Origin: an uncultured Chloroflexia bacterium
GTDB taxonomy: Bacteria; Chloroflexota; Limnocylindria; Limnocylindrales; CSP1-4
Assembly (NCBI GenBank): GCA_963727585.1
Contig: CAVSHH010000008.1
Location: 112,411-176,410, forward strand
Reading direction: 5' to 3'
DNA length: 64,000 nucleotides
Notes under the pieces: model-generated
Database searches by the model: none
What the model saw: the letters and a program-made list of their open reading frames with translations, nothing else
Told to the model about the DNA's origin: nothing
Shown: piece after piece, positions 8,369-42,698 of the stretch
Layout: the number at the start of each line of letters is the position of its first letter
How positions within the stretch are numbered: the first letter of the stretch is position 1
Position numbers and translations under genes: made by a program

Positions 8369-9244
8369 TCAGCCCCGCGTGCTCGTCCTTCCTGTCAGGC
8401 GGTAGTGCAGGAAGGGCTTCCTCCATCGCACGAGGGCCCCGGCGACGGGCTGCAACCAGACCTTGCTGGGCACCTGGACGACCGGGAACCCGATCCCCGC
8501 CTTGAACACGACGAGCGCCTCGTCCTCCGGGATGTGGGGGCTGTGCGCGATCTCGCGGATCCCGGGCGATCGACGGCAGGCATCGATGAACGCGAAATGC
8601 AGACCGGTCCCGATATGGGTCGACAGGGCCTCGGTCGCGAGATCGACGATCTCGATGTAGGCCGTCCCATCCACCACGTAGCCGGCGATCCAGCCGCCAA
8701 GCCGGTCGTCGACGAGCCCGGCGAGGACGATCGCCGAGGGTCGCGAGACGTACCACTCGAGCTCGGCCAGGAACTCCGACTTCGAGCTCGCCGTGCGGTA
8801 GGGGTTGCGCGTCCGCGCCTGGGCCGACTGGAAGACATCGAAGCCGCCGTGCTCAAGCGGACCCAGGCCCAGGACCTGGACGTACTTGACCTGGCGCTGG
8901 CTCCGCCGGAGGTGATACCGCCGGTTGGAGGAAAGGGAGTCGACGCTGAAGCTGTCGAGATCGGCAAGGAGGTGCATCGGCATGGTGGCGTTCGCATCTG
9001 CCGCTGACGACTCCGTGAGCGCGGCGCGATAGCCCCAGCACAGGGGTGACGGTCGCGTCGCCTCCGAGGCGCTGAGCCGCGCCATCGGGTGGATCGGCTC
9101 GAACAATCCCGGAAACGTCTCCCGCCAGTGGCGGCCCCGATGGATGACCGTCCGCCGGGGTTCCGGCGGGTCCGCCGCGAGCTCCGCCTCCGTCACGGGA
9201 AGGAGATGCGCCTCGGCCGCATCCCGGAGCTGGGGATCACTCAT
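8369..9244 (-). CDS. GNAT (Acetyltransf_6/FemAB-like) protein, divergent paralogue-type
   Basis: Start MSDPQLRD at 9244. SSNRRYHLRRSQRQVKY and LGGWIAGYVVDGTAYIEIVDLATEALSTHIGTGLHFAFIDACRRS..VVFKAGIGF follow the BioF2-like/FemAB GNAT pattern. The assignment rests on motif resemblance only. Confidence 0.65.
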   Translation of the reverse strand: MSDPQLRDAAEAHLLPVTEAELAADPPEPRRTVIHRGRHWRETFPGLFEPIHPMARLSASEATRPSPLCWGYRAALTESSAADANATMPMHLLADLDSFSVDSLSSNRRYHLRRSQRQVKYVQVLGLGPLEHGGFDVFQSAQARTRNPYRTASSKSEFLAELEWYVSRPSAIVLAGLVDDRLGGWIAGYVVDGTAYIEIVDLATEALSTHIGTGLHFAFIDACRRSPGIREIAHSPHIPEDEALVVFKAGIGFPVVQVPSKVWLQPVAGALVRWRKPFLHYRLTGRTSTRG

Positions 9245-9647
9245 CGGACCGCCCTGACAGATTCGGCACCATGCGTCACGCGTTACCCCGCTCTCGGTTG
9301 CTCGATGCCGGATGGTCACCACGGCGTGGCCAGAGAGCCTACACCAGCGAGCAGATCGGCCGGACTCGCCCGATGGCCGCAGGGGCGACCCGCGCATGGG
9401 TTGCGTGCAGGCACAGGGTTGCTGCGGCCGGGGTTGACAGCCCAAAGGTCAGGATGGACTCTGTGCCGGGGATCCTGCGAACCAGCCAGGAGCAGGGCTC
9501 CCGCATCGGGGAGGCGAGGGGCGGAGGACGCGATCCCTCGGGATGGATCGAGCCCACCAACCGTCCGGCTCCCGGATCTGCCCCACCCCATCACCCGGCC
9601 GGATCGGGCCTGTGGTCGACGCGCTTCACGGCACCCGAGGAGACCAA

Positions 9648-10691
9648 ATGGAGTCCAGGCCCGGCAGCTTTCTCTACCTCGACCAGGACGACGTGATCCG
9701 GGCCGGTGCCCTGGACATGGGCAGGGTCATCGAGCGGGTCGAGCTTGCCCTCTCGCTGCTGGAATCCGGCGACGTCGTGGACCCCCCGAAGTCGGTCCTG
9801 CGCTGGAGCGAGGACCCCGAGATGGAGAGCATCCGGGGCCGGGTCAACTTCCTGTCGGCCTACCTCGGCGGCGATATCGACGCGGTGGGGATGAAGTGGG
9901 TGGGCAGCTTCCCGGCCAACCGGGAGCGCGGGCTTCCCCGGGCGACGGCCCTGATCATCCTCAACGATCCCATCACCGGCGTGCCCGTCGCGCTTCTCGA
10001 GGGGAGCGTCATCAGCGCCGCCCGGACGGGAGCCATGACCGGGCTCGCGGCCAAGTACCTTGCCCGTCCCGACACGTCGACCATCGGCATCATCGGGACG
10101 GGGGTCCAGGCACGGACCCAGCTGCTCGCGCTGTGCGCCGTGCTCCACGACGTGACCGACGTGAGGATCTACAACCGGACCCGGGACACGGCGGAGCGGT
10201 TCGCCGCGGAGATGGCAGGGCGGACGGGCCGGCAGATCACGATCGTCGACAGCCCGGAGCAGGCGGTCCGCGGGCTCGACCTCGCGCTGGTCGCGACCAC
10301 CGCCCACCAGCCCCTGATGCACGGGGCATGGCTGGCGCCGGGCATGTTGAGCGTCCAGTTCTCGGGCCACGAGTGCGACTTCGAGGTGATCCGGCGAGCG
10401 GACAAGATCGTGTGCGACCAATGGGAGACGGTGAAGCACCGCGGGATCACCACCCCCGCCGTGATGTACCAGCAGGGCCTGCTCGACGACTCGGCGATCC
10501 ACGCCGACCTGCAGCAGATCGTGGCCGGCAAGAGGGCCGGCAGGGAGACGCCCGACGAGCTCATCCATTTCGCGGCGATCGGGCTCGGGGTGAACGATGT
10601 CGCCGTCGCCTCGATGGTCTATGAAACGGCGAAGGCGATGGGCCTCGGCACAGAGCTCTCGCTGTGGGGGGACGCGCCGCTATGGGCCTAG
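9648..10691 (+). CDS. ornithine cyclodeaminase / mu-crystallin family protein
   Basis: ATG at 9648 after GAGGAG. It contains AARTGAMTGLAAKYLARPD and IGIIGTGVQARTQLLAL (Rossmann). The 347-aa length is typical of the family. Confidence 0.88.
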   Translation: MESRPGSFLYLDQDDVIRAGALDMGRVIERVELALSLLESGDVVDPPKSVLRWSEDPEMESIRGRVNFLSAYLGGDIDAVGMKWVGSFPANRERGLPRATALIILNDPITGVPVALLEGSVISAARTGAMTGLAAKYLARPDTSTIGIIGTGVQARTQLLALCAVLHDVTDVRIYNRTRDTAERFAAEMAGRTGRQITIVDSPEQAVRGLDLALVATTAHQPLMHGAWLAPGMLSVQFSGHECDFEVIRRADKIVCDQWETVKHRGITTPAVMYQQGLLDDSAIHADLQQIVAGKRAGRETPDELIHFAAIGLGVNDVAVASMVYETAKAMGLGTELSLWGDAPLWA

Positions 10692-11947
10692 GCATCCCCG
10701 GTCGCCCGCGCGCGGCCGGTGCGACGGGGACGGATCCGTTCGCCGGGATCGACACCGGCACGCCCGTCGTCGTGCTCACGGCGTCGCCACAGGCTCGCCG
10801 GGTCCTGCATACGGCCCTGGGTATCGAGCGCAGCCTGGGTCGTCTCGGGATCCCAGTCCACCTGGTGGACTCCAATCCCCGCGGGCCCGCCGCAGACTCG
10901 CGGTACCGCAAGCGGCGGTTCCTGTTCGACCTGTCCGGGGCGTCGCCGGAGGCCACGGTCGAGCACCTGCTCCAGCTCGGCCGAAGGCTCGGGACCCGGC
11001 CGATCCTGATCCCGACCTGGGACGATCTCGCCATCGTGATCGCCGAGGCCGAGCCGGTGCTCCGTGAGCAGTTCCTGCTGCCGGCCCAGCCGGTCGGGCT
11101 GGCACGATCGCTGTCGGGCAAGTGGGAGATGCATCGCCTGGCCGCGGAGCACGGCGTGCCGTCCCCCGGGGTCGCCTTTCCATCCAGCATCGAGGAGGTC
11201 GAGGCATTCGCCGCGGCCGCCACCTTCCCGGTCATGATCAAGGCCGTATTCGGGTATCGCCTGAACCAGCAGGCGGGACGGTCGCTGTTCATCACCCAGA
11301 CCGTTGACGAGCTCATCCGCCTGTACCGCCGGTTCGAGGATCCGAGCGATCCGAACCTGATGCTCCAGGAGTACATCCCGGGCGGTGACGAGGCGGTCTG
11401 GATGTTCAACGGCTACTTCGGCCAGGACTCCGAGTGCCTGTTCGGCCTGACCGGGCGCAAGCTCCGCCAGACGCCGGCGCACGCCGGCACCACCAGCCTC
11501 GGGGTCTGCCTGCCCAACGAGACGGTCGACGCGATGACCCGTCGTTGGATGAAGGCCATGGGCTACCGGGGGATGCTCGACCTCGGGTTCCGCTACGACG
11601 CCCGAGACGGGCAGTACAAGATCCTCGACGTCAACCCGCGCATCGGCAGCTCGTTCCGGCTGTTCGTCGGCCGGGACGGGCTGGACGTCGTGCGGTCGCT
11701 CTATCTCGACCTGACGGGGCAGCCGGTCCCGCCCGACACCATGGACGTCGGCCGGCGCTGGATGGATGAGCGGGACGTCACCTCGGCATGGACCGACCTG
11801 CGCGCCGGGGCCCTGACGACGCGCGGCTGGCTGGCATCGCTGCGCGATGTCCGGGAGACCGTCTACCTCGCCCCGGACGATCCGGCGCCGGCCGTGCGGC
11901 TCGCCTGGCAGGTCCTCGAGCGGCGGGCGCGCGCGGGCTTCCGATGA
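10682..11947 (+). CDS. ATP-grasp domain protein
   Basis: Overlaps the stop of the previous gene (ATG 10682, with an alternative GTG at 10664). It contains KWEMHRLAAEHGVPSP, FPVMIKAVFG, LMLQEYIPGGDE, MLDLGFRYDARDGQYKILDVNPR and the general ATP-grasp layout. Confidence 0.85.
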   Translation: MGLGIPGRPRAAGATGTDPFAGIDTGTPVVVLTASPQARRVLHTALGIERSLGRLGIPVHLVDSNPRGPAADSRYRKRRFLFDLSGASPEATVEHLLQLGRRLGTRPILIPTWDDLAIVIAEAEPVLREQFLLPAQPVGLARSLSGKWEMHRLAAEHGVPSPGVAFPSSIEEVEAFAAAATFPVMIKAVFGYRLNQQAGRSLFITQTVDELIRLYRRFEDPSDPNLMLQEYIPGGDEAVWMFNGYFGQDSECLFGLTGRKLRQTPAHAGTTSLGVCLPNETVDAMTRRWMKAMGYRGMLDLGFRYDARDGQYKILDVNPRIGSSFRLFVGRDGLDVVRSLYLDLTGQPVPPDTMDVGRRWMDERDVTSAWTDLRAGALTTRGWLASLRDVRETVYLAPDDPAPAVRLAWQVLERRARAGFR

Positions 11948-12612
11948 GGCTGGGACGGCGGATCGGGCTCGGGCTCAAGCGCGGGCTCGACATCGTGGGC
12001 GCGCTGGCCGGGCTCCTCCTGCTGGGACCGGTGCTGGCCTGGACCGCCGTCGCCATCGCCGCCACGATGGGGCGACCGGTCTTCTTCCGCCAGGTGCGGC
12101 CGGGCCTGCATGGCAGGCCCTACCTCATCTGGAAGTTCCGGACCATGCGCTCGCCGCGCCCCGGGGAGGTGTGGTTCGACACCGATGGCGCGCGCATCAC
12201 CCGGCTCGGTGCCCTGCTTCGCGCCACCAGCCTCGACGAGCTCCCGGAGCTGTGGAACGTGCTGCGGGGCGAGATGAGCCTGGTCGGCCCCCGGCCGTTG
12301 CTGGTCGAGTACCTCGACCACTACACCGCCGAGGAGCGACGGCGCCACGACATGCGTCCCGGGATCACGGGCTGGGCTGCCGTCAACGGACGCCATACCG
12401 CGAGGTTCGAGGATCGACTGCGGCTGGACGTCTGGTACGTGGACAACTGGAGCCTGGGGCTTGACGCCACGATCATCGCGATGACGCTGGCCCAGGTGGC
12501 TCGCCGCGAGGCCGTCGCCGTCACCCAGGACCAGGCCGACATCGACTTTCCGGAGCGCTTCCTGGTCGCGCTGCAGGATGGAGACGGAGGCCCCGAGGGA
12601 CGCCGGAGCTAA
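11944..12612 (+). CDS. small (PglC/WbaP C-domain type) phosphoglycosyl transferase, priming sugar transferase
   Basis: ATGA overlap with the ATP-grasp stop. It contains [19 protein letters not shown] (re-entrant helix), [45 protein letters not shown] and RPGITGWA. Length 222 aa. Confidence 0.92.
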
Positions 12613-12669
12613 GTCCTGAGTCGCCCCGCATCGGGCCGGGCCGGGCATGCCCCGCCCGGGGACAGGTCC

Positions 12670-13803
12670 TCAGGCGGTTGCCGCCTCGACGAGCGCGTCC
12701 GCCACGTATTCGACATCCTCGTCCGGCAGCCGCGACCAGAACGGCAGCGCGAGCGTCGAGGCGGCCACCCGTTCGGTGACCGGGAACTCGCCTTGCCTGA
12801 AGCCGAACCGCTCCCGGTAGAGGGGCTGCAGGTGGAGCGGCTGGAAGTACGGGCGGCCCGGGACGCCGCGCTCCGCAAGCCGCGGGATCAGGGCGTCCCG
12901 GTCGATCGACGGGTCGAGTCGCACGACATACACGAACCAGTCGACCTCCTCATCCCCGCCCGCCTGGGGCAGGCGCACCCAGTCGCGGCCACCCAGCGCC
13001 CGCTCGTAGGCGGCCACCACGCGGGCACGACCGGCCCGCAGCTCGGCCAGGCGCTCGACCTGCGCCACGCCGATCGCAGCCGAAAGCTCGTCGAGGCGGT
13101 AGTTGAACCCGAGCCGGACGTGGCGCAGCCAGGTGCCGTCCGTGTCGCGTCCCTGGTTGCGCATGCTGCGCATGACGTCGGCGAGGGACGGGTCGTCGGT
13201 GACCACCATGCCGCCCTCGCCCGTGGTGACCTGCTTGTTGGGGTAGAAGGCGAACACCGCCACGTCGCCGAAGCTGCCCAGGGGCCGCCCGCCCACGGTG
13301 GACCCGAGGCCTTCACAGGCGTCCTCCACGACGGACCAGCCGTGGTCGCGGGCGAGCCCCGCGATCTCGTCGATCCGGCACGGCCGGCCGAACACGTGGA
13401 CCGGCAGGATCGCCGTTGTCCGGTCCCCGGCGGCCGCGGCGGCCAGCGCGGGGTCGATGCCCAGGCTGTCGTCCTCGATGTCCACGAAGCGCGGCACGGC
13501 GCCCTCGTAGAGGATGCAGTTGGCCGAGGCCACGAAGCTGAACGGAGTCGTGATCACCTCGTCCCCGGCGCCGATCCCGAGCGCCCGGATCCCGAGGTGC
13601 AGGCCGGCCGTCCCGCTCGAGCAGGCGATCCCCTCGCGGCGATCGGCCAGGGCCGCGATCCCGGACTCGAACCGCGGGGCGAACGGCCCCAGGGCGAGGA
13701 TGTCGCTGTCGAGGACCTGGGCCACGAGCTCCCGCTCACGGGCGCCGATGTCGGGGCGGGCAAGCGCGACCTGGCGAGGGGGACGGGCGGGCATACCGGT
13801 CAT
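12670..13803 (-). CDS. DegT/DnrJ/EryC1/StrS-family PLP-dependent sugar aminotransferase
   Basis: Start MTGMPARPPRQVALARPDIG at 13803, with GGGGAG upstream. It contains SSGTAGLHL, ILPVHVFGRP and FAFYPNKQVTTGEGGMVVT (the PLP lysine region). Confidence 0.92.
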   Translation of the reverse strand: MTGMPARPPRQVALARPDIGARERELVAQVLDSDILALGPFAPRFESGIAALADRREGIACSSGTAGLHLGIRALGIGAGDEVITTPFSFVASANCILYEGAVPRFVDIEDDSLGIDPALAAAAAGDRTTAILPVHVFGRPCRIDEIAGLARDHGWSVVEDACEGLGSTVGGRPLGSFGDVAVFAFYPNKQVTTGEGGMVVTDDPSLADVMRSMRNQGRDTDGTWLRHVRLGFNYRLDELSAAIGVAQVERLAELRAGRARVVAAYERALGGRDWVRLPQAGGDEEVDWFVYVVRLDPSIDRDALIPRLAERGVPGRPYFQPLHLQPLYRERFGFRQGEFPVTERVAASTLALPFWSRLPDEDVEYVADALVEAATA

Positions 13804-13846
13804 GGGCTCCCCGAAGCTCGGCGATCGGAGCGATCGCAGCTGCGCC

Positions 13847-13881
13847 GTACGGTGCCGTCGGTACGGGTCCCGGCACCGTAC
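13847..13881 (-). other. intercistronic perfect hairpin between the VOC gene and the aminotransferase gene
   Basis: An 11-bp perfect inverted repeat, GTACGGTGCCG (13847-13857) / CGGCACCGTAC (13871-13881), with a 13-nt loop. It lies in the 143-nt gap of an otherwise tightly coupled operon and has no U-tract. Confidence 0.4.
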
Positions 13882-13946
13882 CACGCATGACGGAGGGGAC
13901 CGGGCGGGCGGCTGCGGGATGGCTGTCCGGCGGGCCGCCGGGAGGG

Positions 13947-14426
13947 TCAGGGCGCCTCGGCGGCGCCATCCGGCGGGGACGGGAGCGGGACCGGAAGTCG
14001 CCGCGCACGCCGCAGCGTGTCGATCAGCTCGATGCTCAGCCCGTCACCGGCGTAGACGAAGGCGATCGGCTCGTCCTCGAATGCCTCGCCCGGCTGGGGA
14101 GGCGAGATCACCCGCAGCCCGAGGGCCTCGAGCCTGGCCACCTCGGGGCCGACCGCCTCGGCGCGGAAGCACAGGTGGTGCAGGCCGCCTCCGCGTCGGA
14201 CCAGCGCCGCCACGGGCGAGGTCGGCCCGGAGGGCTCGACAAGCTTGACCGGGAGCGAGCCGTCCTTGTCCAGGAACACGACCCGCACCTGCTGGCGGGT
14301 GTTGAGCACGATCCCGGTGGCCTGGCGATACCCGAACACGACTCGCCACCGCTCGATCGCGTCGTCCAGCGACCGGACGGCGATCCCGACGTGGTCGAGG
14401 ACCAGCGGCGAGGCGGCCTCGCTCAA
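13947..14426 (-). CDS. VOC-superfamily protein, methylmalonyl-CoA-epimerase-like
   Basis: TTG start at 14426 overlapping the ACP stop (TTGA). It contains LDHVGIAVRSLDDAIERW, VKLVEP, GGGLHHLCF and LSIELID, which together follow the MCE/glyoxalase fold pattern. Length 159 aa. It sits in the C-terminal part of the long ORF 13947-15002. Confidence 0.8.
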   Translation of the reverse strand: MSEAASPLVLDHVGIAVRSLDDAIERWRVVFGYRQATGIVLNTRQQVRVVFLDKDGSLPVKLVEPSGPTSPVAALVRRGGGLHHLCFRAEAVGPEVARLEALGLRVISPPQPGEAFEDEPIAFVYAGDGLSIELIDTLRRARRLPVPLPSPPDGAAEAP

Positions 14427-14674
14427 GCTGCCGCGGACGTCTTGCGGGCGACGAACGCCGCGATGCGGGCGATCGTCTCGAGGTTCTCCGGGATCGTCTC
14501 CCGGTCCTCGATGCGAACCCCGTATTCGGCCTCGATGAACAGGATGATGTCGAGCATGCCGGTCGAGTCGACCAGGCCGCTGTCGATCAGCGACAGGTCG
14601 TCCGTGAGCTCCCCCGGATCGCTCACGTAGAAGGTCTCGAGGATGTACTCGCGCACCCGCTCCCGGACGTTCAC
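14423..14674 (-). CDS. free-standing acyl carrier protein
   Basis: 83 aa with a GTG start overlapping the asnB stop (GTGA). It has a phosphopantetheine-site-like GLVDSTGMLDIILFIE, and its size and acidic composition fit an ACP. Confidence 0.85.
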   Translation of the reverse strand: MNVRERVREYILETFYVSDPGELTDDLSLIDSGLVDSTGMLDIILFIEAEYGVRIEDRETIPENLETIARIAAFVARKTSAAA

Positions 14675-16719
14675 GGTCGCTGCCCCTGCCTGCTGTGGAA
14701 TGGCCCGCCTCCGACCGGCGGTCTGGTTTCCACGTGATCCACCACCGTCTGGAACTCCAGCGGCCCCTGCCGACCCGGCTCGCCCCGTACGAGCTCCTCG
14801 ACGAGCAGGCCCGTCGACACGACGCCGACGAGTGCCATGTTATCGGCGTTCGAGAACTGCCGGTGGCCGCCGTTCGCACGGCACTTGGCCCACAGCCGTT
14901 CGACGCCCGGCGGATCGAACACCCCGGCCGCAGCGATGGTGCGCGGGGACACCAGCTCATCAACCCAGTCGGGGCGGTCCTCGCCGGTGAACGCCAGCGC
15001 ATCGGGAGCGCGGTACGGCTGCTTCGAGCGCCGGAGGATCGCGTCGGGAACGATCCCTCGGGCCGCCAGCTTGAGGACGTGCTTCTCGCGGAGTGCCGGG
15101 AGCTTGAACGACGGCGGCAGCGAGTTCGCCAGCTCCACCAGGTCCGGATCGAGGAACGGGAACCGTCCCTCCACCGAGTTCGCCATCAGCATCCGGTCGC
15201 CCTGGCTGGAGAGCAGGTAGCCGGACAACAGCGTCCGGGTTTCGAGGTACTGGTCCTGGGCGAGCGCCGACCACCGCCCGAATTCCGCCGGCAGCCGGGC
15301 GAGCAGGCGCCCGGCGACGTCGGCCCGGGCGATCTCCCGCCGCAGGTCGGGCGTGAACAGTCGCTGGAGGGCCGCCGTGGACTGCCAGCGTGGCCGGTGC
15401 GCGAAGCCGGGGCTCGCCCACGCTTGGCGGTCGCGACCGAAGAACTCCTGCGCCCAAGCCTGCTGGGCCACCGGGCTGCGGGACAGGTACGGGTAGAGAC
15501 GGCGCAGCAGCAGCGGCCGCAGGCTCGAGTCGGGCTGGCGTCCCCAGAAGCGGCGGACCTTGCCTTCCCGGAACAGGTCGTACCCGGCGAACAGCTCGTC
15601 GGCACCCTCGCCTGTAAGCACGACCTTGATCCCGCTCTGGCGGACCAGGCGCGACAGGAGGAACAGGGGTGCCGGCGCCGTCCGCAGGAGCGGCCGCTCG
15701 GCGTGGGCGACGACAGCCGGGAAGGCGTCGGCGATCGCCCGTCGCGTCACCGTCACCTCGTGGTGGTCGCTGCCGAGTTGCTCGGCCATCAGCCGCTGGT
15801 AGGGCGTCTCGTCGTACTCGTCGTCCTCGAACCGGATCGAGTAGGTGGAGAACCGCGCGCCCTTGGCGCGCAGGCCGAGGGCCGCAACCAGCGAGCTGTC
15901 GAGGCCGCCCGAGAGGTAGCTGCCCACGGGGACATCGGCGCGCAGCATCCGCAGGCGAACCGAGGTCTCGAGCGCGGCCAGCACGGCCTCCGCCGCCTCG
16001 TCCTCGCTGCCCGTGAACGCCCGTCCGCTCTCGACGGGGTAGCGCGGCTCCCAGTAGGCGCGGTCCGTGACCCGGCCGTCCCGGACGGTGCGGACGTGGC
16101 CCGGCTCCAGCTCCGAGATGCCCTCGAACATCCCCTGCGGCGCCACGCTGGTCCAGAACGTGAACACCTCGGCGAGCCCGGCTGGATCCAGGCCGCGCGG
16201 GAGCGACGGGTCGCCCGCGAAGATCGCCTTGACCTCGCTCGCGAACCACAATCGGCCGCCGTGCTGGGCAAGGTAGAGCGGCCGGATGCCCAGCCGATCG
16301 CGGGCGAGGACCAGGGTCTGCTCGGCCGCATCCCAGATCGCGATCGCGAACTGGCCGTTGAAGCGCGCGAACGCGTCGTCCGCCCACTGCTCCCAGGCGT
16401 GGACGACGACCTCCGTGTCGCTCCGGGTCCGGAACACGTGGCCGAGGCGGACCAGCTCGTCCCGCAGCTCCGGGTAGTTGTAGATCTCGCCGTTGAACAC
16501 CACCCACGCCCGGCCACCCTCGCCGGCCAGCGGCTGCTGCCCGGTGGCCAGGTCGATGATGGACAACCGGGCATGGCCCAGGGCCGCCCGGCGATCCCGA
16601 TAGATCCCGCACTCGTCAGGCCCGCGGTGGCGGAGCGCGGCGACCATCGCCTCGACGTCGGAACGCTCCGGCGGCGGCACCGACGGCGCCAGGGCGACAG
16701 ACCCGGCAATCCCGCACAT
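14671..16719 (-). CDS. asnB: asparagine synthetase B-type glutamine-dependent amidotransferase
   Basis: 682 aa beginning MCGIAG (Cys2 Ntn nucleophile). It has the PP-loop SGGLDSS. It contains RGPDECGIY, LSIIDLATGQQP and FNGEIYNY. Confidence 0.95.
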   Translation of the reverse strand: MCGIAGSVALAPSVPPPERSDVEAMVAALRHRGPDECGIYRDRRAALGHARLSIIDLATGQQPLAGEGGRAWVVFNGEIYNYPELRDELVRLGHVFRTRSDTEVVVHAWEQWADDAFARFNGQFAIAIWDAAEQTLVLARDRLGIRPLYLAQHGGRLWFASEVKAIFAGDPSLPRGLDPAGLAEVFTFWTSVAPQGMFEGISELEPGHVRTVRDGRVTDRAYWEPRYPVESGRAFTGSEDEAAEAVLAALETSVRLRMLRADVPVGSYLSGGLDSSLVAALGLRAKGARFSTYSIRFEDDEYDETPYQRLMAEQLGSDHHEVTVTRRAIADAFPAVVAHAERPLLRTAPAPLFLLSRLVRQSGIKVVLTGEGADELFAGYDLFREGKVRRFWGRQPDSSLRPLLLRRLYPYLSRSPVAQQAWAQEFFGRDRQAWASPGFAHRPRWQSTAALQRLFTPDLRREIARADVAGRLLARLPAEFGRWSALAQDQYLETRTLLSGYLLSSQGDRMLMANSVEGRFPFLDPDLVELANSLPPSFKLPALREKHVLKLAARGIVPDAILRRSKQPYRAPDALAFTGEDRPDWVDELVSPRTIAAAGVFDPPGVERLWAKCRANGGHRQFSNADNMALVGVVSTGLLVEELVRGEPGRQGPLEFQTVVDHVETRPPVGGGPFHSRQGQRP

Positions 16720-16722
16720 GGA

Positions 16723-17688
16723 TCAGGAGGAGCGCAGCGGCTGCGGCACGGCGTGGAGGTAGCGGCTGGCGCGCCGCTTGGCCTCGATATCCCGGAACAC
16801 GCGCTCGACCTGCTCGACGCTGAGGCCGATCGCCGGAGCCGCCTCGACGGCAGGCACGCCGTGGTTGACCGCCCACAGGCAGAGGTCCATCTCGGGGTAC
16901 GGGAGGGCGAAGTAGAACTCCTCCTGGCTCTGGGCCAGCGAGTACGTGTCGGTCGTCGGCTGCCGCTGCACGATCTCGTCGGGGACACCCAGGGCTTCGG
17001 CCAGCGCGAACACCTGCGTCTTGTAGAGGTGGGCGATGGGCTTGATGTCGGCCGCACCGTCCCCCTGCTTGACGAAGAAGCCCTGATCGTATTCGAGGAG
17101 GTTGGGCGTGCCGGCCACGGCGTAGGCGAGGCGATCCGCGTGGTAATAGGCCAGCATCATCCGGGTTCGCTGCTTGAAGTTGGTGGCGGCCACGATCTGC
17201 AGGAACGCCGCCGGCGCCATCCGCATCCGCCGCTCGTTGCCGGCGGGGTCGGCGACCACCAGCTGGGCGACGTTGAGCCGGTCACCGTCGAGCAGCGGCG
17301 GCAGCACGATCTTGCAGCGCCAGCCGTTGCCGTACTCGGGCACCAGCATCCGCGCAGCCTCCGCCTGTCGCTCGTAGCAGCCCACCGCTGCCAGGGCCGG
17401 CGAGATGTCCTCGACCGCGTACCGGATCCCCAGCCGCTCCGCCAGCATCCGGCCGAGCCGGAGTGCATCGTCCGACGAGTCCCGCTCGGGGAGCAGCAGG
17501 CCGAACACCCGTTCGGGGCCGAGGGCGCGGACGGCGAGGGTGGCCACGAGTGAGCTGTCCACGCCCCCGGACATGGCCACGACGATCCCTCGTCGTCGCA
17601 GGTCGCCGAGAACGATGGACCGGATCCTGGCCTCGATCTCCTCGGCCTCGCGCGGGGCGTCGATCTGGAGGACGTCCTGTGAGAACAT
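16723..17688 (-). CDS. NAD+ synthetase-family PP-loop ATPase (NadE-like)
   Basis: Start MFSQDVLQID at 17688. It has the PP-loop VAMSGGVDSS. The later GDGAADIKPIAHLYKTQV is typical of NadE. The stop lies 3 nt before the asnB start. Confidence 0.88.
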   Translation of the reverse strand: MFSQDVLQIDAPREAEEIEARIRSIVLGDLRRRGIVVAMSGGVDSSLVATLAVRALGPERVFGLLLPERDSSDDALRLGRMLAERLGIRYAVEDISPALAAVGCYERQAEAARMLVPEYGNGWRCKIVLPPLLDGDRLNVAQLVVADPAGNERRMRMAPAAFLQIVAATNFKQRTRMMLAYYHADRLAYAVAGTPNLLEYDQGFFVKQGDGAADIKPIAHLYKTQVFALAEALGVPDEIVQRQPTTDTYSLAQSQEEFYFALPYPEMDLCLWAVNHGVPAVEAAPAIGLSVEQVERVFRDIEAKRRASRYLHAVPQPLRSS

Positions 17689-17758
17689 GCGGTGGGCTCC
17701 CCGAGCGCACGGTCCAGCGCCACCTCGCTGGCGTGGCGGAGGCCCGTGACCTTGAACC

Positions 17759-19468
17759 GTGAGTCTACGGCACCCGACCTCGGCGCTGGATGAGGCTGGA
17801 TTGGGCAACGAGCAGCGCGCACCAGGGACGAGCGCCGGGGATATCGCCCGGCTTCCCCCGACCCCGTTCCTCGCCGAGTGGCTCGCGTTCCATGCCACCC
17901 GGCGGCCCGATGCGCCGGCGTTGGTCGCGGGACCCGTCCGGCTCACCTACGGTGAGCTTGCCCACCGCGCCTGGCTGCTGGCCGGCGACATGGCCCGGTG
18001 CGGCGTCGAGCCGGGGACGCGGGTCGTCCTCGCACTGCCAAACACCCCCGCGGCGGTCGTCGCGGGGCTCGCGCTCAACCGGCTGGGGGCCACATCGGTG
18101 GAGGTCAGCCGGGCCTGGAGCGCCGAGGTGCTGGGCGCCATCCTCGCCCGTACCGGCGCGCGCCATCTCGTCGTGGCGGCCCGCGATGGCGCCACCTGGG
18201 CGCGGGCCCTGGCCGGTTCGTCGGTCGACCATGCCTGGGTCGTCCGCCGCGGCCCCCAGCGGCCCGGCGACGAAGACACCGTCGGCGGCCGGCCGTCCAC
18301 CACCGTGCTCGATGGGGGCACGATTGCCGGTGATGCCGGCGCGACACCGCCGGCCGTCCACCCCGAACCAGACTGGCCCGCGCTGATCCTGTACACCTCG
18401 GGCAGCACCGGCCGACCCCACGGGGTCGTCCAGACCTTCGCCAACGTCGACGCCAACAGCCGCTCGATCGTCGAGTACCTCGGCCTGACCCAGGGGGACC
18501 GGGCCCTGCTGACCCTTCCCCTCGCCTACTGCTACGGCCGCAGCGTCCTCCAGACACACCTGCTGGCCGGCGGCTCGGTCGTGCTCGACAACCGGATGGC
18601 GTTCCCGCGGCGGGTGATGGAGACGATGGCGGCGGAAGGCTGCACGGGGTTCGCCGGCGTACCGCTCACCTTCGAGCTCCTCCGGCGCAGCGTCGACCTG
18701 GCCTCGATCGACCGGTCCCGGCTCCGCTATGTCACCCAGGCCGGTGGAGCCATGGCCGGCGACACGATCGCGTGGGCCCGGGACGCCTTCGCGCCCGCCG
18801 AGCTGTTCGTGATGTACGGGCAGACGGAGGCGACGGCACGCCTGTCGTATCTGCCGCCCGATCGCGGCCTGGACAAGGCCGGCTCGATCGGCATCCCGAT
18901 CCCGGGCGTGGATCTGCGCGTCGTCGACGAATCCGGTGCCACGCTGCCACCCGGGGAGATCGGGCAGATCGTGGCCCGGGGCGACAACGTGACCCAGGGC
19001 TACATCGACGATCCGGACGAGACCGCGGCGATCCTCCACGACGGCTGGCTGTGGACGGGCGACCTGGGCGAGATGGACGCCGATGGCTTCCTCTACCACC
19101 GGGGACGCGTGCGCGAGATCATCAAGGTCGGCGGCCACCGGGTCAGCCCGGTGCAGATCGAGGAGGTTGTCGCCCGGCACCCCGACGTGGCGGAGGTCGG
19201 CGTGGTCGGCATGCCCGACGAGCTGATGGGCGAGGTCCCGGTCGCCGTCGTGGTGCCGCGCTCCGGGTCCGCGCTGGACGTGGCGGACGTGCTCCGTCAC
19301 TGCCGCGCCAACCTGCCTCCGCCTCTCGTGCCGGCAGCCGTCAGGCCGGCCGTCTCACTGCCCAGGAACGAGGCGGGCAAGCTCCAGCGCGCGATCCTGG
19401 CAGCGTCCCTGGAAGCCGGCCCAGATTCCCCGGACCGGCCCGGCGCGACGGCCCGATCCCGGGCGTAG
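17759..19468 (+). CDS. ANL-superfamily adenylating enzyme (acyl-CoA/acyl-ACP ligase)
   Basis: AMP-binding core LILYTSGSTGRPHGV, then YGQTEA, TGDLGEMDADGFLYHRGR and IKVGGHRVSP. It is divergent from the nadE-like operon across a 70-nt gap. The GTG start at 17759 is not certain. Confidence 0.92.
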   Translation: MSLRHPTSALDEAGLGNEQRAPGTSAGDIARLPPTPFLAEWLAFHATRRPDAPALVAGPVRLTYGELAHRAWLLAGDMARCGVEPGTRVVLALPNTPAAVVAGLALNRLGATSVEVSRAWSAEVLGAILARTGARHLVVAARDGATWARALAGSSVDHAWVVRRGPQRPGDEDTVGGRPSTTVLDGGTIAGDAGATPPAVHPEPDWPALILYTSGSTGRPHGVVQTFANVDANSRSIVEYLGLTQGDRALLTLPLAYCYGRSVLQTHLLAGGSVVLDNRMAFPRRVMETMAAEGCTGFAGVPLTFELLRRSVDLASIDRSRLRYVTQAGGAMAGDTIAWARDAFAPAELFVMYGQTEATARLSYLPPDRGLDKAGSIGIPIPGVDLRVVDESGATLPPGEIGQIVARGDNVTQGYIDDPDETAAILHDGWLWTGDLGEMDADGFLYHRGRVREIIKVGGHRVSPVQIEEVVARHPDVAEVGVVGMPDELMGEVPVAVVVPRSGSALDVADVLRHCRANLPPPLVPAAVRPAVSLPRNEAGKLQRAILAASLEAGPDSPDRPGATARSRA

Positions 19469-19557
19469 ACTGGGGCGATGCCGACGCCCATGCCGTCGGC
19501 CCGGCACACGGGTGGCGCGCCCTGGAGCCGGTTCCCGGAAAGGAGTCTGGCGCGGCT

Positions 19558-20277
19558 GTGTCCAGCACGAGTGACGAGGCGGCGACCCCAGACATCGCCG
19601 AGACGCCCCTGGTGATCATTGGTGCCGGCGGCTTCGGGCGAGAGGTGCTCGAGCTCGTTCGTGACATCAACGAGGCGCGACCGACCTTCGAGCTGCAGGG
19701 ATTCCTCGATGATGGCGAGGTGAATCCGCACGTGATCGAGCGGGCGGGCATCCCGCTGCTCGGACGCTCCAGCCGGGTCGCCAGCCTAGGTGCGAGCTAC
19801 GTGATCGCCATCGGCTCCGCGGAGGCCCGGCGTCAGATCGATGCCGGGGCCCGCGCCTCCCACCAGGTCGCGGCCGCCACCCTGGTGCACCCGTCGGCGA
19901 CGCTGGGGGCGGACGTCCTGGTCGGTGAAGGGGCGATCGTCGGTGCCGGATCCCGGCTCACCACCCACGTGGCGGTCGGTCGCCACGCGCACGTGAATGT
20001 CAACTGCACGGTCGGCCACGACGTGACGATCGAGGATTTCGCCACCCTGTTCCCCGGCGTCCACATCGGCGGCGGCTGTGTCGTGGAGGAGGGAGCAACG
20101 CTCAGCATGGGGAGCGTCATCCTGCCCGGCGTTCGCATCGGACGGGGTGCCGTGGTCGGCGCCGGATCGGTCGTCGTCCGCGACGTTGCCGCGGACACGA
20201 CGGTCATGGGCCCGGCGGCCCGGGCCACCCTCAGGACCGCGCTCTCGCCGGGCGGCTATGCCCGATCCACAGGCTAG
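19558..20277 (+). CDS. NeuD/PglD-family hexapeptide-repeat sugar N/O-acyltransferase
   Basis: GTG at 19558 after AAGGAG. It has an N-terminal Rossmann-like PLVIIGAGGFGREVLELV followed by left-handed beta-helix repeats (VGEGAIVGAGS, VGHDVTIEDFATLFPGVHIGGG, ILPGVRIGRGAVVGAGSVV). Confidence 0.88.
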   Translation: MSSTSDEAATPDIAETPLVIIGAGGFGREVLELVRDINEARPTFELQGFLDDGEVNPHVIERAGIPLLGRSSRVASLGASYVIAIGSAEARRQIDAGARASHQVAAATLVHPSATLGADVLVGEGAIVGAGSRLTTHVAVGRHAHVNVNCTVGHDVTIEDFATLFPGVHIGGGCVVEEGATLSMGSVILPGVRIGRGAVVGAGSVVVRDVAADTTVMGPAARATLRTALSPGGYARSTG

Positions 20278-20749
20278 CGGACAGCTCGAGATCCGGGAGG
20301 TCGGCCCGGCTGATTGCGTGGCGCTCGCTGAGATCTTCGGCGAGGTCGACACCACGTTCTTCCGCCCCCACCCGTTCACGCCACGGCAGGCATGGCGGAT
20401 CGCGTCGCAGACCGGCAAGGACATCCATGCGCTGCTCGTCCTCGACGGGCGGCCCATGGCCTACGGCATGCTCCGGGGCTGGGACGAGGGCTACGACACT
20501 CCCTCGCTGGGCATCGCAGTCCGCACCTCCGAGCAGCGAAAGGGCTATGGCCGGGCGTTGATGGCCGGTCTCCATGCCCTGGCGGCCCGACGCGGCGCCG
20601 AGCAGGTCCGCCTGCGGGTGCACCCTGGGAATGTGCGGGCGCGCCGCATGTACGAGCTCCTCGGCTACCAGTACCGGGGCGTCGAGCGCGGCGAGCTGCT
20701 GATGGTCATGGACCTGCGGGACCCGCCGGCGGGGCAACGAACCCGCTAG
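20258..20749 (+). CDS. GNAT-family N-acetyltransferase
   Basis: ATG at 20258 overlapping the previous gene by 20 nt. The acetyl-CoA motif region is LGIAVRTSEQRKGYGRALM followed by NVRARRMYELLGY. Length 163 aa. Confidence 0.85.
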   Translation: MPDPQASGQLEIREVGPADCVALAEIFGEVDTTFFRPHPFTPRQAWRIASQTGKDIHALLVLDGRPMAYGMLRGWDEGYDTPSLGIAVRTSEQRKGYGRALMAGLHALAARRGAEQVRLRVHPGNVRARRMYELLGYQYRGVERGELLMVMDLRDPPAGQRTR

Positions 20750-20818: not shown

Positions 20819-21102
20819 GCGCTCCACCGCCGGGAGGGCGTCGCGAGGTGCGGTCGGGAGTGGTCCTCGCGGGTCTGCCCCCCGTCGTACGCAGATCTCC
20901 CTAGCGGGATGGGGTGCCCGGCGGGAGTACCCATCGCCTGTTGCGGTCGGGCGCCCAGACCTCGATGGTGGAGAGCACCAGACATCGGCCGACCGGAGCA
21001 TCGGATCGGTCTCCTCGACAACGGCACACCCGTCGTGAGGCGGGGTCGCAAAGCCACGGGGCTTCACGAGCCAGCCGGGCTACCGAAAGGAGCACCCAGC
21101 TC

Positions 21103-22854
21103 ATGTTCTGGGATGGTGAGCGCTGGATCGACGAGCGCCAGGTCAACCCGCCTCGGTCATCCGCCGTCAGGTCCCGGTTTCGAAGGCGGCGCTGGGGCGC
21201 ACCGTTGGTTGCGCTCGCAGCCACGGCCGCGCTGGTGCTGACGCCGTCACTGTCCGCCAACGCGGTGACCCCGGCCGACTCCCTGTTCCGAACCTGGAAC
21301 CAAGAGACGACGGCCCAGGTCATCCAGGAGCGCGACCCGGCCGTGTCCGTTCGAGGCCAGTGGCACCGTCCGCACCGGCGCGCGGCAATGGGCGCCCACC
21401 ACCGTTCGACGCGCCAGAAGGGTGCGAGGATGACCGTCGGCTTCGAGGGATCGGCGGTCGCGATCATCGGACCGCTCGGCCCCGGACGCGGCAAGGCGCG
21501 CGTCTTCGTCGACGGACGCTTCGTGGCCACCATCAACGCCTATGCATCCAAGGTCGCCAGCAAGCAGGTGCTGTTCGCCCGGACCTGGCGTGACGGCGGG
21601 TCGCACACCGTCATGCTGGAGGTTGTCGGGACCTCCGGACATCCCCGCATCACCGTCGATGCGTTCCTGGTCAAGGGGGAGAAGCGTGGCAAGGCGCGGG
21701 GCCACGGGCCGGCACCCACGCCCAGTCCGGCCGAGACGGCGGCACCCGACCCGACCGCCGGGCCGGCCACGCCGGAGCCCACCGCCAAGGCCGATCCGAC
21801 GGCCGGGCCGGCCACGCCGGAGCCCACGGCCAAGGTCGACCCGACGGCCGCGCCGGCCACGCCGGCGCCCACGGCAACTCCGGTCCCCACCCCCAAGCCC
21901 ACGGCAACTCCAGCCCCCACGCCGAAGCCCACGGCCACCCCGGCGCCCAAACCCACGGCAACTCCAGCCCCGACGGCGTCCACCGCCTGCGGCTCCTCGC
22001 TGCAGACGAAGATCAACGGCGCCACGTCGGGCGCGACCCTCAACCTCGGCGGCTGCACCTACTCCGCGGGAGCCACGATCAACAAGCCGCTGACCCTGGT
22101 CGGAGCGCGCATCTATCCGGCGGCCAACACCCGCGGGCTGATCGTCACGGCATCCAACGTCACCATTGACTCGGTGGTCATCGTGGGCCCCCAGGCGACG
22201 ACCTACCGCTGGAACGAGGTGGGCATCCTGACCACGGGCTCGATCTCGAACCTGGTCGTCCGCAACTCGACCATCCAGAAGTTCGGCAACAGCGGGATCT
22301 GGCTGGGCACGACCAGCAACGCCCGGGTCACCGGGACCACGATCGAGGACGCCGTCTACTCGGGGATCATGGACATCTCCGGCTCGGGCGACCGGATCGC
22401 CGGCAACACCGTGCGCCGGATCGGGGTCGTGGGCGCGTCCGCCAACTCGAACAACGCCTACGGGATCGCCATCTCCAACGAGGGCGGTGCCCTGTCCTCC
22501 GACATCGTGGTCGACGGCAACACCGTCGCCAGGGTGCCGACCTGGCACGGGCTGGACACCCATGCCGGCCGGCGGATCACGTTCTCCAACAACACCGTCA
22601 GCGGCGCCCCCCGGGCCCTGTTCATCACCAGCGACAGCTACGGGCGCTCGGCAGGCGATATCACCGTCAAGGGGAACAAATTCCTCAGCCCATCGCCCGC
22701 CACCAGCAACCTGGTGACCGTCACGACGTATGACGTCGACGGGGGCTCCGTGACCGGCAACTCGGCCAGCGGCTGGGGGAGCGCGGCATTCTTCTACGAC
22801 TACCAGGGCATGAGCAATGGGCTCACCGTCTCCGGGAACAGCGTCACGCCATAG
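21103..22854 (+). CDS. secreted right-handed parallel beta-helix repeat protein with N-terminal beta-sandwich-like domain and Pro/Thr linker
   Basis: ATG at 21103 after AAAGGAG. The signal-like sequence is RFRRRRWGAPLVALAATAALVLTPSLSANA. A PT-rich linker precedes beta-helix repeats (LIVTASNVTIDSVVIVG, LVVRNSTIQKFGNSGIWLG, NNAYGIAISNEGG, TWHGLDTHAG). Confidence 0.85.
   Translation: MFWDGERWIDERQVNPPRSSAVRSRFRRRRWGAPLVALAATAALVLTPSLSANAVTPADSLFRTWNQETTAQVIQERDPAVSVRGQWHRPHRRAAMGAHHRSTRQKGARMTVGFEGSAVAIIGPLGPGRGKARVFVDGRFVATINAYASKVASKQVLFARTWRDGGSHTVMLEVVGTSGHPRITVDAFLVKGEKRGKARGHGPAPTPSPAETAAPDPTAGPATPEPTAKADPTAGPATPEPTAKVDPTAAPATPAPTATPVPTPKPTATPAPTPKPTATPAPKPTATPAPTASTACGSSLQTKINGATSGATLNLGGCTYSAGATINKPLTLVGARIYPAANTRGLIVTASNVTIDSVVIVGPQATTYRWNEVGILTTGSISNLVVRNSTIQKFGNSGIWLGTTSNARVTGTTIEDAVYSGIMDISGSGDRIAGNTVRRIGVVGASANSNNAYGIAISNEGGALSSDIVVDGNTVARVPTWHGLDTHAGRRITFSNNTVSGAPRALFITSDSYGRSAGDITVKGNKFLSPSPATSNLVTVTTYDVDGGSVTGNSASGWGSAAFFYDYQGMSNGLTVSGNSVTP
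21748..21985 (+). repeat. in-frame tandem repeats encoding a Pro/Thr/Ala linker
   Basis: 45-nt units at 21748-21792 and 21793-21837, plus a 39-nt partial unit at 21838-21876 (DPTAGPATPEPTAKA x2.9). These are followed by ~30-nt KPTATPAPTP units up to ~21985. Confidence 0.9.
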
Positions 22855-23075
22855 GGGCCCAGCGTCATGTCAATCGCGTGACAAGGGGCCCGGCGCAGAC
22901 ACCGGCGACATCGGCCATACTCACCGCGGCCGCAGCGGTCCGCGACCTGGGAACGTCACCAGGAGCCGTCCGCGCCTGAACCCCGCATGGGTCATGGAGG
23001 GAACGTGCGGCCGAGCTCTCAGGCGCGCCCGTGAGGTGCGGCGAGCCCCCCGCCAGAAGCTCCGAGGTCCCCGTC

Positions 23076-41468: not shown

Positions 41469-42698
<1,230 letters not shown>

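Follow-up and report, generated by a model that had tools for sequence, protein, structure and literature searches.

An operon on the pSymB megaplasmid of Sinorhizobium meliloti, asnB-smb20651-smb20650-nadE1, encodes the acyl carrier protein (ACP) SMb20651 and the ligase SMb20650 together with AsnB and NadE homologues (Ramos-Vega et al. 2009, Microbiology 155:257, as cited in PMC7232532 and PMC5686131). PMC7232532 reports that smb20650 is cotranscribed with smb20651, that co-expression of SMb20650 in an Escherichia coli strain making holo-SMb20651 yields acylated SMb20651, and that SMb20650 cannot replace FadD and in vivo has no role as a synthetase for fatty acyl-coenzyme A (CoA). A 2017 paper lists SMb20651 among proteins whose "functions need further investigation" (PMC5686131). 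Here we describe a copy of this gene set in a stretch of 64,000 nucleotides from an uncultured Chloroflexia bacterium (GenBank assembly GCA_963727585.1, contig CAVSHH010000008.1, positions 112,411 to 176,410), referred to below as the window. The cassette found there is the local copy of an old, mobile operon of four genes (NadE-like, AsnB, ACP and ANL ligase), and its amino-sugar neighbors suggest that its product is an unusual acyl group that decorates a sugar of the cell surface.

Several characterized pathways are relevant to such chemistry. Cys2 AsnB homologues of the OxyD, MgsC/D and DdaH type act on short di-acids with one end activated or tethered, and amidate the carboxylate at the distal end. 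An AsnB homologue and a discrete ACP provide the malonamoyl starter units of oxytetracycline (OxyD) and of the glutarimide polyketides (MgsC/MgsD-type pairs), and the ANL enzyme DdaG acts with the AsnB-like DdaH to make the fumaramoyl group of the dapdiamides. Loading of a dedicated carrier by an ATP-dependent ligase, tailoring on the carrier and transfer to a sugar amine are the steps of the butirosin system (BtrI/J/K/O/V/H/G) and of RfbK-O, putative tetronate genes in Vibrio cholerae O1, where the acceptor is a 4-amino-4,6-dideoxy sugar. The left-handed beta-helix (LbH) enzymes of the NeuD/PglD type can use donors other than acetyl, as AntD does, and AntC/AntD is a case of non-acetyl N-acylation of a 4-amino sugar.

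A further described set is the one associated with exosortase A (XrtA/PEP-CTERM), which contains a ligase (TIGR03098), an amidotransferase (TIGR03108), hydrolases 1 and 2 and a FemAB-like protein, and whose members are hypothetical equivalogs without assigned chemistry. To our knowledge, the XrtA set as described includes no NadE-like enzyme. The 2006 paper on PEP-CTERM (PMC1569441) does not mention a ligase, an ACP, an amidotransferase or NAD.

Results and Discussion

Genes of the Cassette

Coding frames were set by third-position GC (GC3), since the window contains about 71% G+C, and domains were assigned with Pfam and NCBIfam profile searches. The original prediction, which was made from the DNA letters and a list of open reading frames (ORFs), had placed an acyl-carrier and amidotransferase cassette within an amino-sugar module. 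Every gene and domain that it named was recovered by the profile searches, with GC3 values of 0.85-0.94 throughout. The features are as follows.

11944-12612, plus strand: small PglC-type polyprenyl-phosphate phosphoglycosyltransferase, 222 aa (PF02397, 206.5 bits, profile positions 1-178 of 179)
12670-13803, minus strand: DegT-family pyridoxal phosphate-dependent sugar aminotransferase, 377 aa (PF01041, 371 bits)
13804-13946, minus strand: spacer between the VOC and DegT genes, 143 nt, with a perfect 11-bp inverted repeat, GTACGGTGCCG ... CGGCACCGTAC
13947-14426, minus strand: VOC protein resembling methylmalonyl-CoA epimerase, 159 aa (Glyoxalase_4, 73 bits)
14423-14674, minus strand: free-standing PP-binding carrier protein, 83 aa (PF00550, 24.6 bits; DSTG phosphopantetheine-site motif)
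14671-16719, minus strand: AsnB-type glutamine amidotransferase, 682 aa, starting MCGIAG (Cys2)
16723-17688, minus strand: NadE-like PP-loop ATPase, 321 aa (PF02540, 164.6 bits), first gene of the minus-strand operon
About 17801-19468, plus strand: ANL adenylating ligase, divergent from the NadE-like gene (AMP-binding, 245 bits; AMP-binding_C, 67 bits)
19558-20277, plus strand: NeuD/PglD/VioB-type hexapeptide N-acyltransferase, 239 aa, encoded downstream of the ligase gene (PglD_N, 47 bits, and Hexapep)
20258-20749, plus strand: GNAT acetyltransferase, 163 aa, sharing 20 nt with the end of the NeuD gene (PF00583, 50.7 bits)

The NadE-like gene starts with the ATG at 17688; the start of the ligase is uncertain by about 15-40 codons and may be 17759, 17801 or a position somewhat downstream. 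The close junctions described in the original prediction were confirmed by reading the sequence: a 3-nt gap from the NadE-like stop to the AsnB start (TGA-TCC-ATG), a GTGA overlap between AsnB and ACP and a TTGA overlap between ACP and VOC. The DegT gene, separated from VOC by the hairpin-bearing spacer of 143 nt, is therefore not translationally chained to the other four. No T-run follows the hairpin and it was not flagged by the terminator scan; attenuation, RNA processing and protein binding are its possible roles. On the plus strand, an ATGA overlap joins the PglC-type gene to an upstream ATP-grasp gene.

The Four-Gene Operon across Bacteria

A scan of one genome per species, anchored on the NadE-like gene, identified at least 536 species-level loci, with carriers among the rhizobia, myxobacteria, Acidobacteriota, Planctomycetota, Nitrospirota and Chloroflexota. 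Neighborhoods were analyzed for the best 80 of these loci (numbered from L001) by tblastn with the window proteins and by ORF clustering, and genes were counted in the 67 loci that have adequate flanks. The best 80 loci come from about ten phyla (Chloroflexota, Myxococcota, Acidobacteriota, Mesorhizobium and Bradyrhizobium, Planctomycetota, Nitrospirota, Bacteroidota, Verrucomicrobiota and others). Across them the NadE-like protein is 58-86% identical to that of the window, and it is the most conserved member of the module. Its closest relatives are in Chloroflexi metagenome-assembled genomes (MAGs; 83-86% identity), and thousands of relatives from metagenomes have identities of 72-89%. A tblastn search of plasmids located the gene in Mesorhizobium, Azospirillum and Shinella as well as in S. 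meliloti, S. medicae and S. fredii, where it lies on the pSymB megaplasmids.

Within 8 kb of the NadE-like gene, an ACP is encoded in 65 of the 67 loci, an ANL ligase in 62 and AsnB in 58. The corresponding counts are 26 for a methyltransferase with an NPPY motif, 19 for an LbH acyltransferase, 18 for an unannotated lipoprotein, 16 for a PglC-type transferase, 9 for a FemAB-like protein, 6 for DegT and 5 for the VOC protein, while GNAT and OCD genes occur in none. We conclude that the cassette represents an old and mobile operon because the order of its genes is permuted between phyla while the core genes stay contiguous. Insertion of a cassette into an amino-sugar module, as the original prediction had it, is thus not what happened here: the four genes form an operon in at least 536 species-level genomes and have been described as such in S. 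meliloti since 2009. Co-occurrence of VOC, ACP, AsnB, NadE-like and ligase genes holds for the four operon members. It does not extend to VOC or to GNAT; both are local additions to the module, and any epimerization step would therefore be lineage-specific at best.

The proteins of the window and of the S. meliloti operon (smb20650 to smb20653) are related in all four families, with blastp identities of 49% for AsnB (548 bits), 38% for ACP (E 1e-22), 36% for the ligase (249 bits) and 59% for NadE (377 bits). The arrangement differs: in S. meliloti the genes have another order and the ligase lies inside the operon, whereas in the window the chain at 14423-17688 is on the minus strand and the divergent ligase is of a different subtype. 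This ligase subtype has relatives of 59-76% identity only in the Chloroflexota loci and in one related deltaproteobacterial locus. Unlike the window, the S. meliloti copy has no DegT, NeuD, PglC or related VOC gene nearby; its flanks hold ABC-transporter, aldo/keto-reductase and minCDE genes. The gene set is therefore already known from S. meliloti. What is new here is its context and the ligase subtype, and nothing in the sequence is categorically new.

The exosortase A set is related to the module at the level of profiles. For the module ligase TIGR03098 ranks first or second among the NCBIfam models, and for the module AsnB TIGR03108 ranks second, but all loci tested stay below the trusted cutoffs (ligase, 313-492 against 592, with 313.3 in the window; AsnB, 401-472 against 817, with 423.3 in the window). 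In other phyla the module lies beside genes that score as hydrolase 1 or 2, an exosortase fusion, EpsI, a PEP-CTERM-type regulator with an ATPase, and a FemAB-like gene. The locus in the window shares with the set a FemAB-like gene (7246-8340), and no exosortase or EpsI is present among its Pfam-scanned genes at 1-33.7 kb. The module is a relative of the uncharacterized XrtA-associated set and not a member of it. The caveat in the original prediction, that FemAB, AsnB, ACP and ligase genes co-occur in some exopolysaccharide loci, was accurate.

Variations on the module were seen in other loci. In 18 of the 67 loci, from about six phyla, the module is followed by a gene for a protein of about 280 aa (for example L011 14563-15417, L012 7714-8544 and L037 11001-11873). 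This protein carries a signal peptide and, in the one representative inspected, a lipobox. Neither Pfam nor NCBIfam gave a match to it, and no homologue was detected in the window; a role as an extracytoplasmic partner of the pathway is possible. A class I S-adenosylmethionine-dependent methyltransferase with the NPPY motif, the N-methyltransferase signature of HemK/PrmC-like enzymes, is embedded in the module of Mesorhizobium, Bradyrhizobium, some Myxococcota and a Nitrosomonadales MAG (L012, L014, L017, L018, L082 and others) and is absent from the window. Its presence is consistent with a nitrogen-bearing product that is open to N-methylation. In Mesorhizobium loci, such as L018 (7263-9983), a protein of 906 aa resembling a nonribosomal peptide synthetase (NRPS) is encoded directly upstream of the NadE-like gene. 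Sequence and NCBIfam matches give it an adenylation domain, a carrier domain and a C-terminal thioesterase-like alpha/beta-hydrolase, and in these loci the module belongs to a larger assembly. An apparent fusion in a NadE-like protein of 552 aa (P0083) was rejected, since its N-terminal extension is a spurious product of high GC content.

Association with Amino-Sugar and Glycan Genes

The most informative context found here is that of the Chloroflexota, where genes for a 4-amino-sugar pathway flank the operon, the aminotransferase on one side and the N-acyltransferase on the other. DegT and a NeuD-type LbH gene adjoin the module in each of the six Chloroflexota relatives (L001-L004, L006 and L013; NadE-like identity 66-86%). 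The module is located between these two genes, or in L013 between PglF and DegT. In most of them, as in the window, the NeuD-type gene comes directly downstream of the ligase, and its distance from a core gene is 0-947 bp. The order in L013 is PglF, then NadE-AsnB-ACP, then NeuD-ligase-DegT, with a PglF-type dehydratase of 688 aa (PF02719) immediately upstream of the NadE-like gene. Homologues of PglF occur within 10 kb of the module in L001 and L006 as well.

In other phyla the link is less strong. Of the 80 loci, 13 from four phyla have DegT within 5.5 kb of a core gene; beyond the Chloroflexota these are two Acidobacteriota, one Nitrospirota and five Mesorhizobium loci. An LbH acyltransferase is encoded within 137 bp of a core gene in eight loci from four phyla, and a short one within 70 bp in four further loci from three phyla other than Chloroflexota. 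PglC-type homologues are near the module in 10-16 loci. Among the 50 long loci, a glycan-assembly gene is found within 10 kb of the module in 33 and none is recognizable in 17. The amino-sugar genes are not fortuitous neighbors in the six Chloroflexota relatives; this does not carry over to S. meliloti or to Anaeromyxobacter, where amino-sugar genes such as DegT are lacking near the operon. We conclude that the link to a 4-amino sugar is genuine in this lineage and recurs elsewhere, and that the module is not dedicated to this acceptor.

The window shares a small PglC-type transferase, a DegT aminotransferase and a NeuD/PglD-type LbH acyltransferase with the UDP-diNAcBac, VioA/VioB, PerA/PerB and AntC/AntD systems. 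Three of the four defining features of the Campylobacter bacillosamine module PglF/E/D/C are thus present, and PglF is the one that is absent. The window differs from the UDP-diNAcBac pathway in that a five-gene module splits the aminotransferase from the acyltransferase, and in that the acyl donor may be bound to a carrier instead of being a CoA ester. For the DegT protein, the best NCBIfam models are of the PseC and LegC types, both under their cutoffs. The NeuD-like protein scores 167.8 with TIGR03570 (cutoff 160.8), and its best matches in the PDB are VioB (7txp), 4m9c, a Neisseria pilin glycosylation protein (4m98) and PerB (4ea7). These closest solved relatives all N-acylate the C4 amine of nucleoside diphosphate (NDP)-4-amino-4,6-dideoxyhexoses.

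The simplest alternative is that the adjacency arose by chance and that the NeuD-like enzyme merely acetylates a 4-amino sugar in an ordinary pathway of the diNAcBac or VioNAc type. It agrees with the score of this protein above the family cutoff for sugar acetyltransferases, with the GNAT gene next door and with the lack of DegT in most module loci outside the Chloroflexota. However, the arrangement is kept in six species-level Chloroflexota genomes over the range of NadE-like identities given above, and DegT stands beside the module again in Acidobacteriota, Nitrospirota and Mesorhizobium. We regard a chance association as very unlikely. The Chloroflexota layout poses a concrete question: does an acyl carrier donate to an NDP-4-amino sugar?

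Sequence Features of the Operon Enzymes

The NadE-like protein scores 507.9 with PRK00876 (cutoff 313) and 149.5 with TIGR00552 (cutoff 63.65), and its best PDB match is an NH3-dependent NAD synthetase (2e18). Its translation contains an SGGVDSS P-loop and the motif FFVKQGDG. Between the two blocks that align with 2e18 there are about 65 additional residues, a segment that canonical NadE lacks and that carries EYGNGWRC, one of the most conserved peptides of the family. The protein could be viewed as a genuine NH3-dependent NAD+ synthetase paralogue that travels with AsnB, ACP and ligase, for example for local NAD supply, and that stands outside the acyl chemistry. The score above the cutoff of the "NAD(+) synthase" model PRK00876, the retained P-loop and FFxKxGDG motifs and the annotation of homologues as nadE in RefSeq, which gives the module proteins generic names only, are in line with that role. 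It is at odds with the operon linkage to ACP, ligase and AsnB in about 60 of the 67 loci from about ten phyla, with the extra segment foreign to canonical NadE, and with the two NadE-like copies found inside the module of some loci. A bystander NAD synthetase is, in our judgment, highly doubtful.

The AsnB protein combines Cys2 and an SGGLDSS loop with an intact synthetase domain (GATase_7, 157 bits; Asn_synthase, 312 bits; TIGR01536, 522 bits), and in the PDB it matches TsnB9 (7ylz) and E. coli AsnB (1ct9) best. A Cys2 AsnB adjoining a discrete ACP, with the GTGA overlap in the window, is the likeness to the malonamoyl-ACP systems of OxyD and MgsC/D. The Pfam scans of the window, which beyond 40 kb cover part of the genes, gave no ketosynthase or polyketide synthase; the only thiolase-fold match is a degradative-type thiolase at 41469-42581. 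Compared with the malonamoyl and dapdiamide systems, the window adds a NadE-like enzyme, and the destination of the acyl group is presumably a sugar amine and not a polyketide or peptide. The butirosin and V. cholerae O1 systems differ from the window in their tailoring enzymes, which are a decarboxylase and a monooxygenase or reductases instead of two amidating PP-loop enzymes, and in their transferase families; there is no orthology at the sequence level.

The best PDB matches of the carrier are free-standing peptidyl carrier proteins (PCPs; 2my5), with weaker matches to D-alanyl carrier proteins and to ACPs of the fatty acid synthase type. Its best NCBIfam match, ACP_for_OlsHI (59 against a cutoff of 130), gave a lead to ornithine lipids that was dropped because the OlsH/OlsI pathway employs a GH3-like enzyme and an alpha/beta hydrolase and is unconnected to the module. 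The ligase keeps all core ANL motifs and has LAYCYG in place of FDxS, the motif whose Asp we take to bind the alpha-amino group in amino-acid-activating ANL enzymes. Its best PDB matches are oxalate-CoA ligases (5ie0 with 222 bits and 6qjz with 218). Next come feruloyl and fatty-acyl ligases at about 199 bits, then FadD5 (192) and malonyl-CoA synthetase (4fuq, 166). The ranking is a weak hint that short di-acids may be preferred; the substrate cannot be called because the scores of the oxalate, feruloyl, fatty-acyl and malonyl ligases are too close. The VOC protein scores 59.8 with the methylmalonyl-CoA epimerase model TIGR03081, below the equivalog threshold of 114.95, and matches "glyoxalase I" entries in the PDB at 55 bits and methylmalonyl-CoA epimerases at about 40 bits. 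It is a protein of the VOC fold that is epimerase-like only.

Proposed Pathway and Alternatives

We propose a route in which an acid loaded by the ligase is amidated on the carrier and then moved to a 4-amino sugar to give a new N-acyl amino sugar. We favor this route tentatively and give it somewhat less than an even chance. Two units would be joined. Judging from family membership, the DegT aminotransferase, the NeuD/VioB-type acyltransferase and the small PglC-type transferase would make and prime an N-acylated 4-amino-4,6-dideoxyhexose, and the asnB-acp-ligase-nadE operon would be attached to this sugar-priming set. The ANL ligase would adenylate a small carboxylic acid, probably a short dicarboxylate, and transfer it as a thioester to the PCP-like carrier. 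The glutamine-dependent AsnB and the NadE-like enzyme, which is probably ammonia-dependent, would each adenylate a free carboxylate or carbonyl and exchange oxygen for nitrogen. The expected product is an acyl-S-carrier that bears a carboxamide, with a second nitrogen function or an amide-to-amidine or amide-to-nitrile step as possible extensions. In the Chloroflexota lineage the VOC protein may then epimerize a 2-substituted thioester, the most speculative step. Finally, the NeuD-type enzyme, or the FemAB-like protein, would place the acyl group on the 4-amino group of the sugar instead of acetyl, and the new N-acyl amino sugar would stand at the reducing end of, or within, an exopolysaccharide made by the surrounding Wzx/Wzy locus.

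The step with experimental support is the loading of the carrier, in the homologous S. meliloti system. As had been supposed, full-text literature searches turned up no characterized glycan pathway with this gene set.

A number of observations weigh against the proposed route. Which acid is loaded, that it is amidated on the carrier and that the NeuD-like enzyme uses an acyl carrier are parts of the route that we infer. The route assigns no defined role to the NadE-like enzyme, and two amidating enzymes exceed the need of a simple mono-amide; the extreme conservation of the NadE-like protein suggests an invariant, perhaps nucleotide-like, substrate. The ligase resembles oxalate and malonate ligases only marginally more than it does those for feruloyl and fatty-acyl substrates. 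In a 2009 study of S. meliloti, SMb20651 reportedly bore C12 and C18 acyl chains in E. coli, which would indicate fatty acids rather than a short di-acid. We know of no characterized NeuD/PglD/VioB enzyme that uses a donor other than acyl-CoA, and no single transferase family accompanies the module throughout the 67 loci. The S. meliloti operon has no glycan genes within 9 kb, and Anaeromyxobacter dehalogenans 2CP-1 (CP001359.1, at about 3.27 Mb) has the divergent layout of the window in an exopolysaccharide locus without DegT, so that an amino sugar is not a universal acceptor. In agreement with the original prediction, the 64-kb window contains no PglF-type 4,6-dehydratase detectable by tblastn with the PglF of L013 (E < 1e-5), and the sole short-chain dehydrogenase/reductase (SDR) of the locus (4098-5141) does not match PF02719.

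If the acceptor is set aside, the module could make a lipid or a small soluble metabolite with no attachment to a sugar, for instance the amide of a fatty or dicarboxylic acid, and the Chloroflexota adjacency would then reflect shared envelope-related regulation or shuffling of islands. The S. meliloti operon, the 17 of 50 long loci without a recognizable glycan-assembly gene, the reported long-chain acylation of SMb20651 in E. coli and the Mesorhizobium loci, which add type I secretion genes to the NRPS-like protein, all agree with such a product. On the other side are the glycan genes of the other 33 long loci, the recurrence of exosortase-type exopolysaccharide markers (hydrolases 1 and 2, EpsI and exosortase) beside the module, and the synteny of DegT and NeuD among the six Chloroflexota relatives, three of which include PglF. 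PMC7232532 reports that SMb20650 makes no CoA esters from long-chain fatty acids in vivo. We consider a sugar-free product unlikely.

Alternatively, AsnB and the NadE-like enzyme could act on the glycan or on a nucleotide sugar and convert a uronic acid to a uronamide or an acetamido to an acetamidino group, while the ligase and ACP separately supply an ordinary acyl chain. Uronamide formation is known for WbpS and WbtH and acetamidino formation for the PP-loop enzymes WbpG and PseA, and AsnB-type and PP-loop amidotransferases with such roles are found in loci for O-antigens and flagellin glycans. An invariant nucleotide-linked substrate would be in keeping with the very high conservation of the NadE-like protein, and the NPPY methyltransferase, present in 26 of the 67 loci, recalls N-methylated acetimidoyl groups. 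However, the Pfam scans identified no UDP-sugar 6-dehydrogenase in the locus at 1-33.7 kb, and the NadE-like protein matches NAD-synthetase models rather than the WbuX/WbpG-type model. The translational overlap of AsnB with ACP, the position of ACP beside AsnB in many other loci and the persistence of the four genes as a group even where no sugar genes are nearby likewise point away from direct amidation of a glycan, which seems to us improbable.

The proposed route can be placed in a broader one, in which the quartet is a widespread pathway for a carrier-bound, nitrogen-rich acyl group (carboxamide, diamide, amidine or nitrile) that is delivered here to the 4-amino group of a sugar of the bacillosamine or viosamine type. 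This generalization is possible, if somewhat unlikely. It would define an undescribed class of N-acyl glycan decoration and a NadE-family enzyme acting on a substrate other than nicotinic acid adenine dinucleotide. New acyl chemistry for bacterial surface glycans and a non-NAD function in the NadE family would follow if the amino-sugar proposal is true; even otherwise, the operon deserves to be worked out in a tractable host.

Surrounding Locus

Positions 1-33.7 kb of the window constitute one polysaccharide locus according to the Pfam and NCBIfam scans, and the genes scanned from 33.9 kb onward are housekeeping genes (such as gltBD, thiolase, fumarase and purK). The remaining contents of the locus are as follows.

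Sugar metabolism: a cytidylyltransferase-like enzyme, the SDR at 4098-5141, an RmlC-like epimerase and a PIG-L deacetylase
Glycosyltransferases: a GT2 and three GT4
Assembly: Wzy, Wzx and a Wzz/tyrosine-kinase protein
7246-8340: FemAB-like protein
9612-11947, plus strand: SbnB-like dehydrogenase of the OCD family and ATP-grasp enzyme
Three secreted beta-helix proteins

The best model for the OCD-family protein is the SbnB family of 2,3-diaminopropionate synthesis (266 bits against a cutoff of 327), and no SbnA-like partner was seen. Membership of the SbnB-like and ATP-grasp pair in a dapdiamide-like route was considered and rejected, as the two genes are kept with the module in 0 and 3 of the 67 loci, respectively. 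They are therefore treated as a separate, locus-specific decoration system, which may add a second group of the amino-acid type. Two further coding regions of the locus, at 2158-3045 and 8369-9244 on the minus strand, encode about 290 aa each with GC3 values of 0.88-0.89; their products have no Pfam or NCBIfam match and no homologue among the 80 related loci.

The three beta-helix proteins are right-handed, NosD-like paralogues encoded at 21205-22854 (plus strand), 23031-24062 (plus strand) and 28133-29179 (minus strand), and may be glycan-modifying enzymes, depolymerases or adhesins. A PKD/beta-helix protein occupies the equivalent position in an Anaeromyxobacter locus. A scan of 11.8-21.3 kb for promoters and terminators gave no signal exceeding the expectation from shuffled sequence. 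A c-di-GMP-I-GGC riboswitch is located at 21014-21088 on the plus strand (Rfam RF03167, 69.6 bits against a gathering score of 59, E 2e-14), between the stop of the GNAT gene and the secreted beta-helix gene at 21205-22854, whose product has a Pro/Thr-rich linker. Part of the polysaccharide locus may therefore be controlled by cyclic di-GMP.

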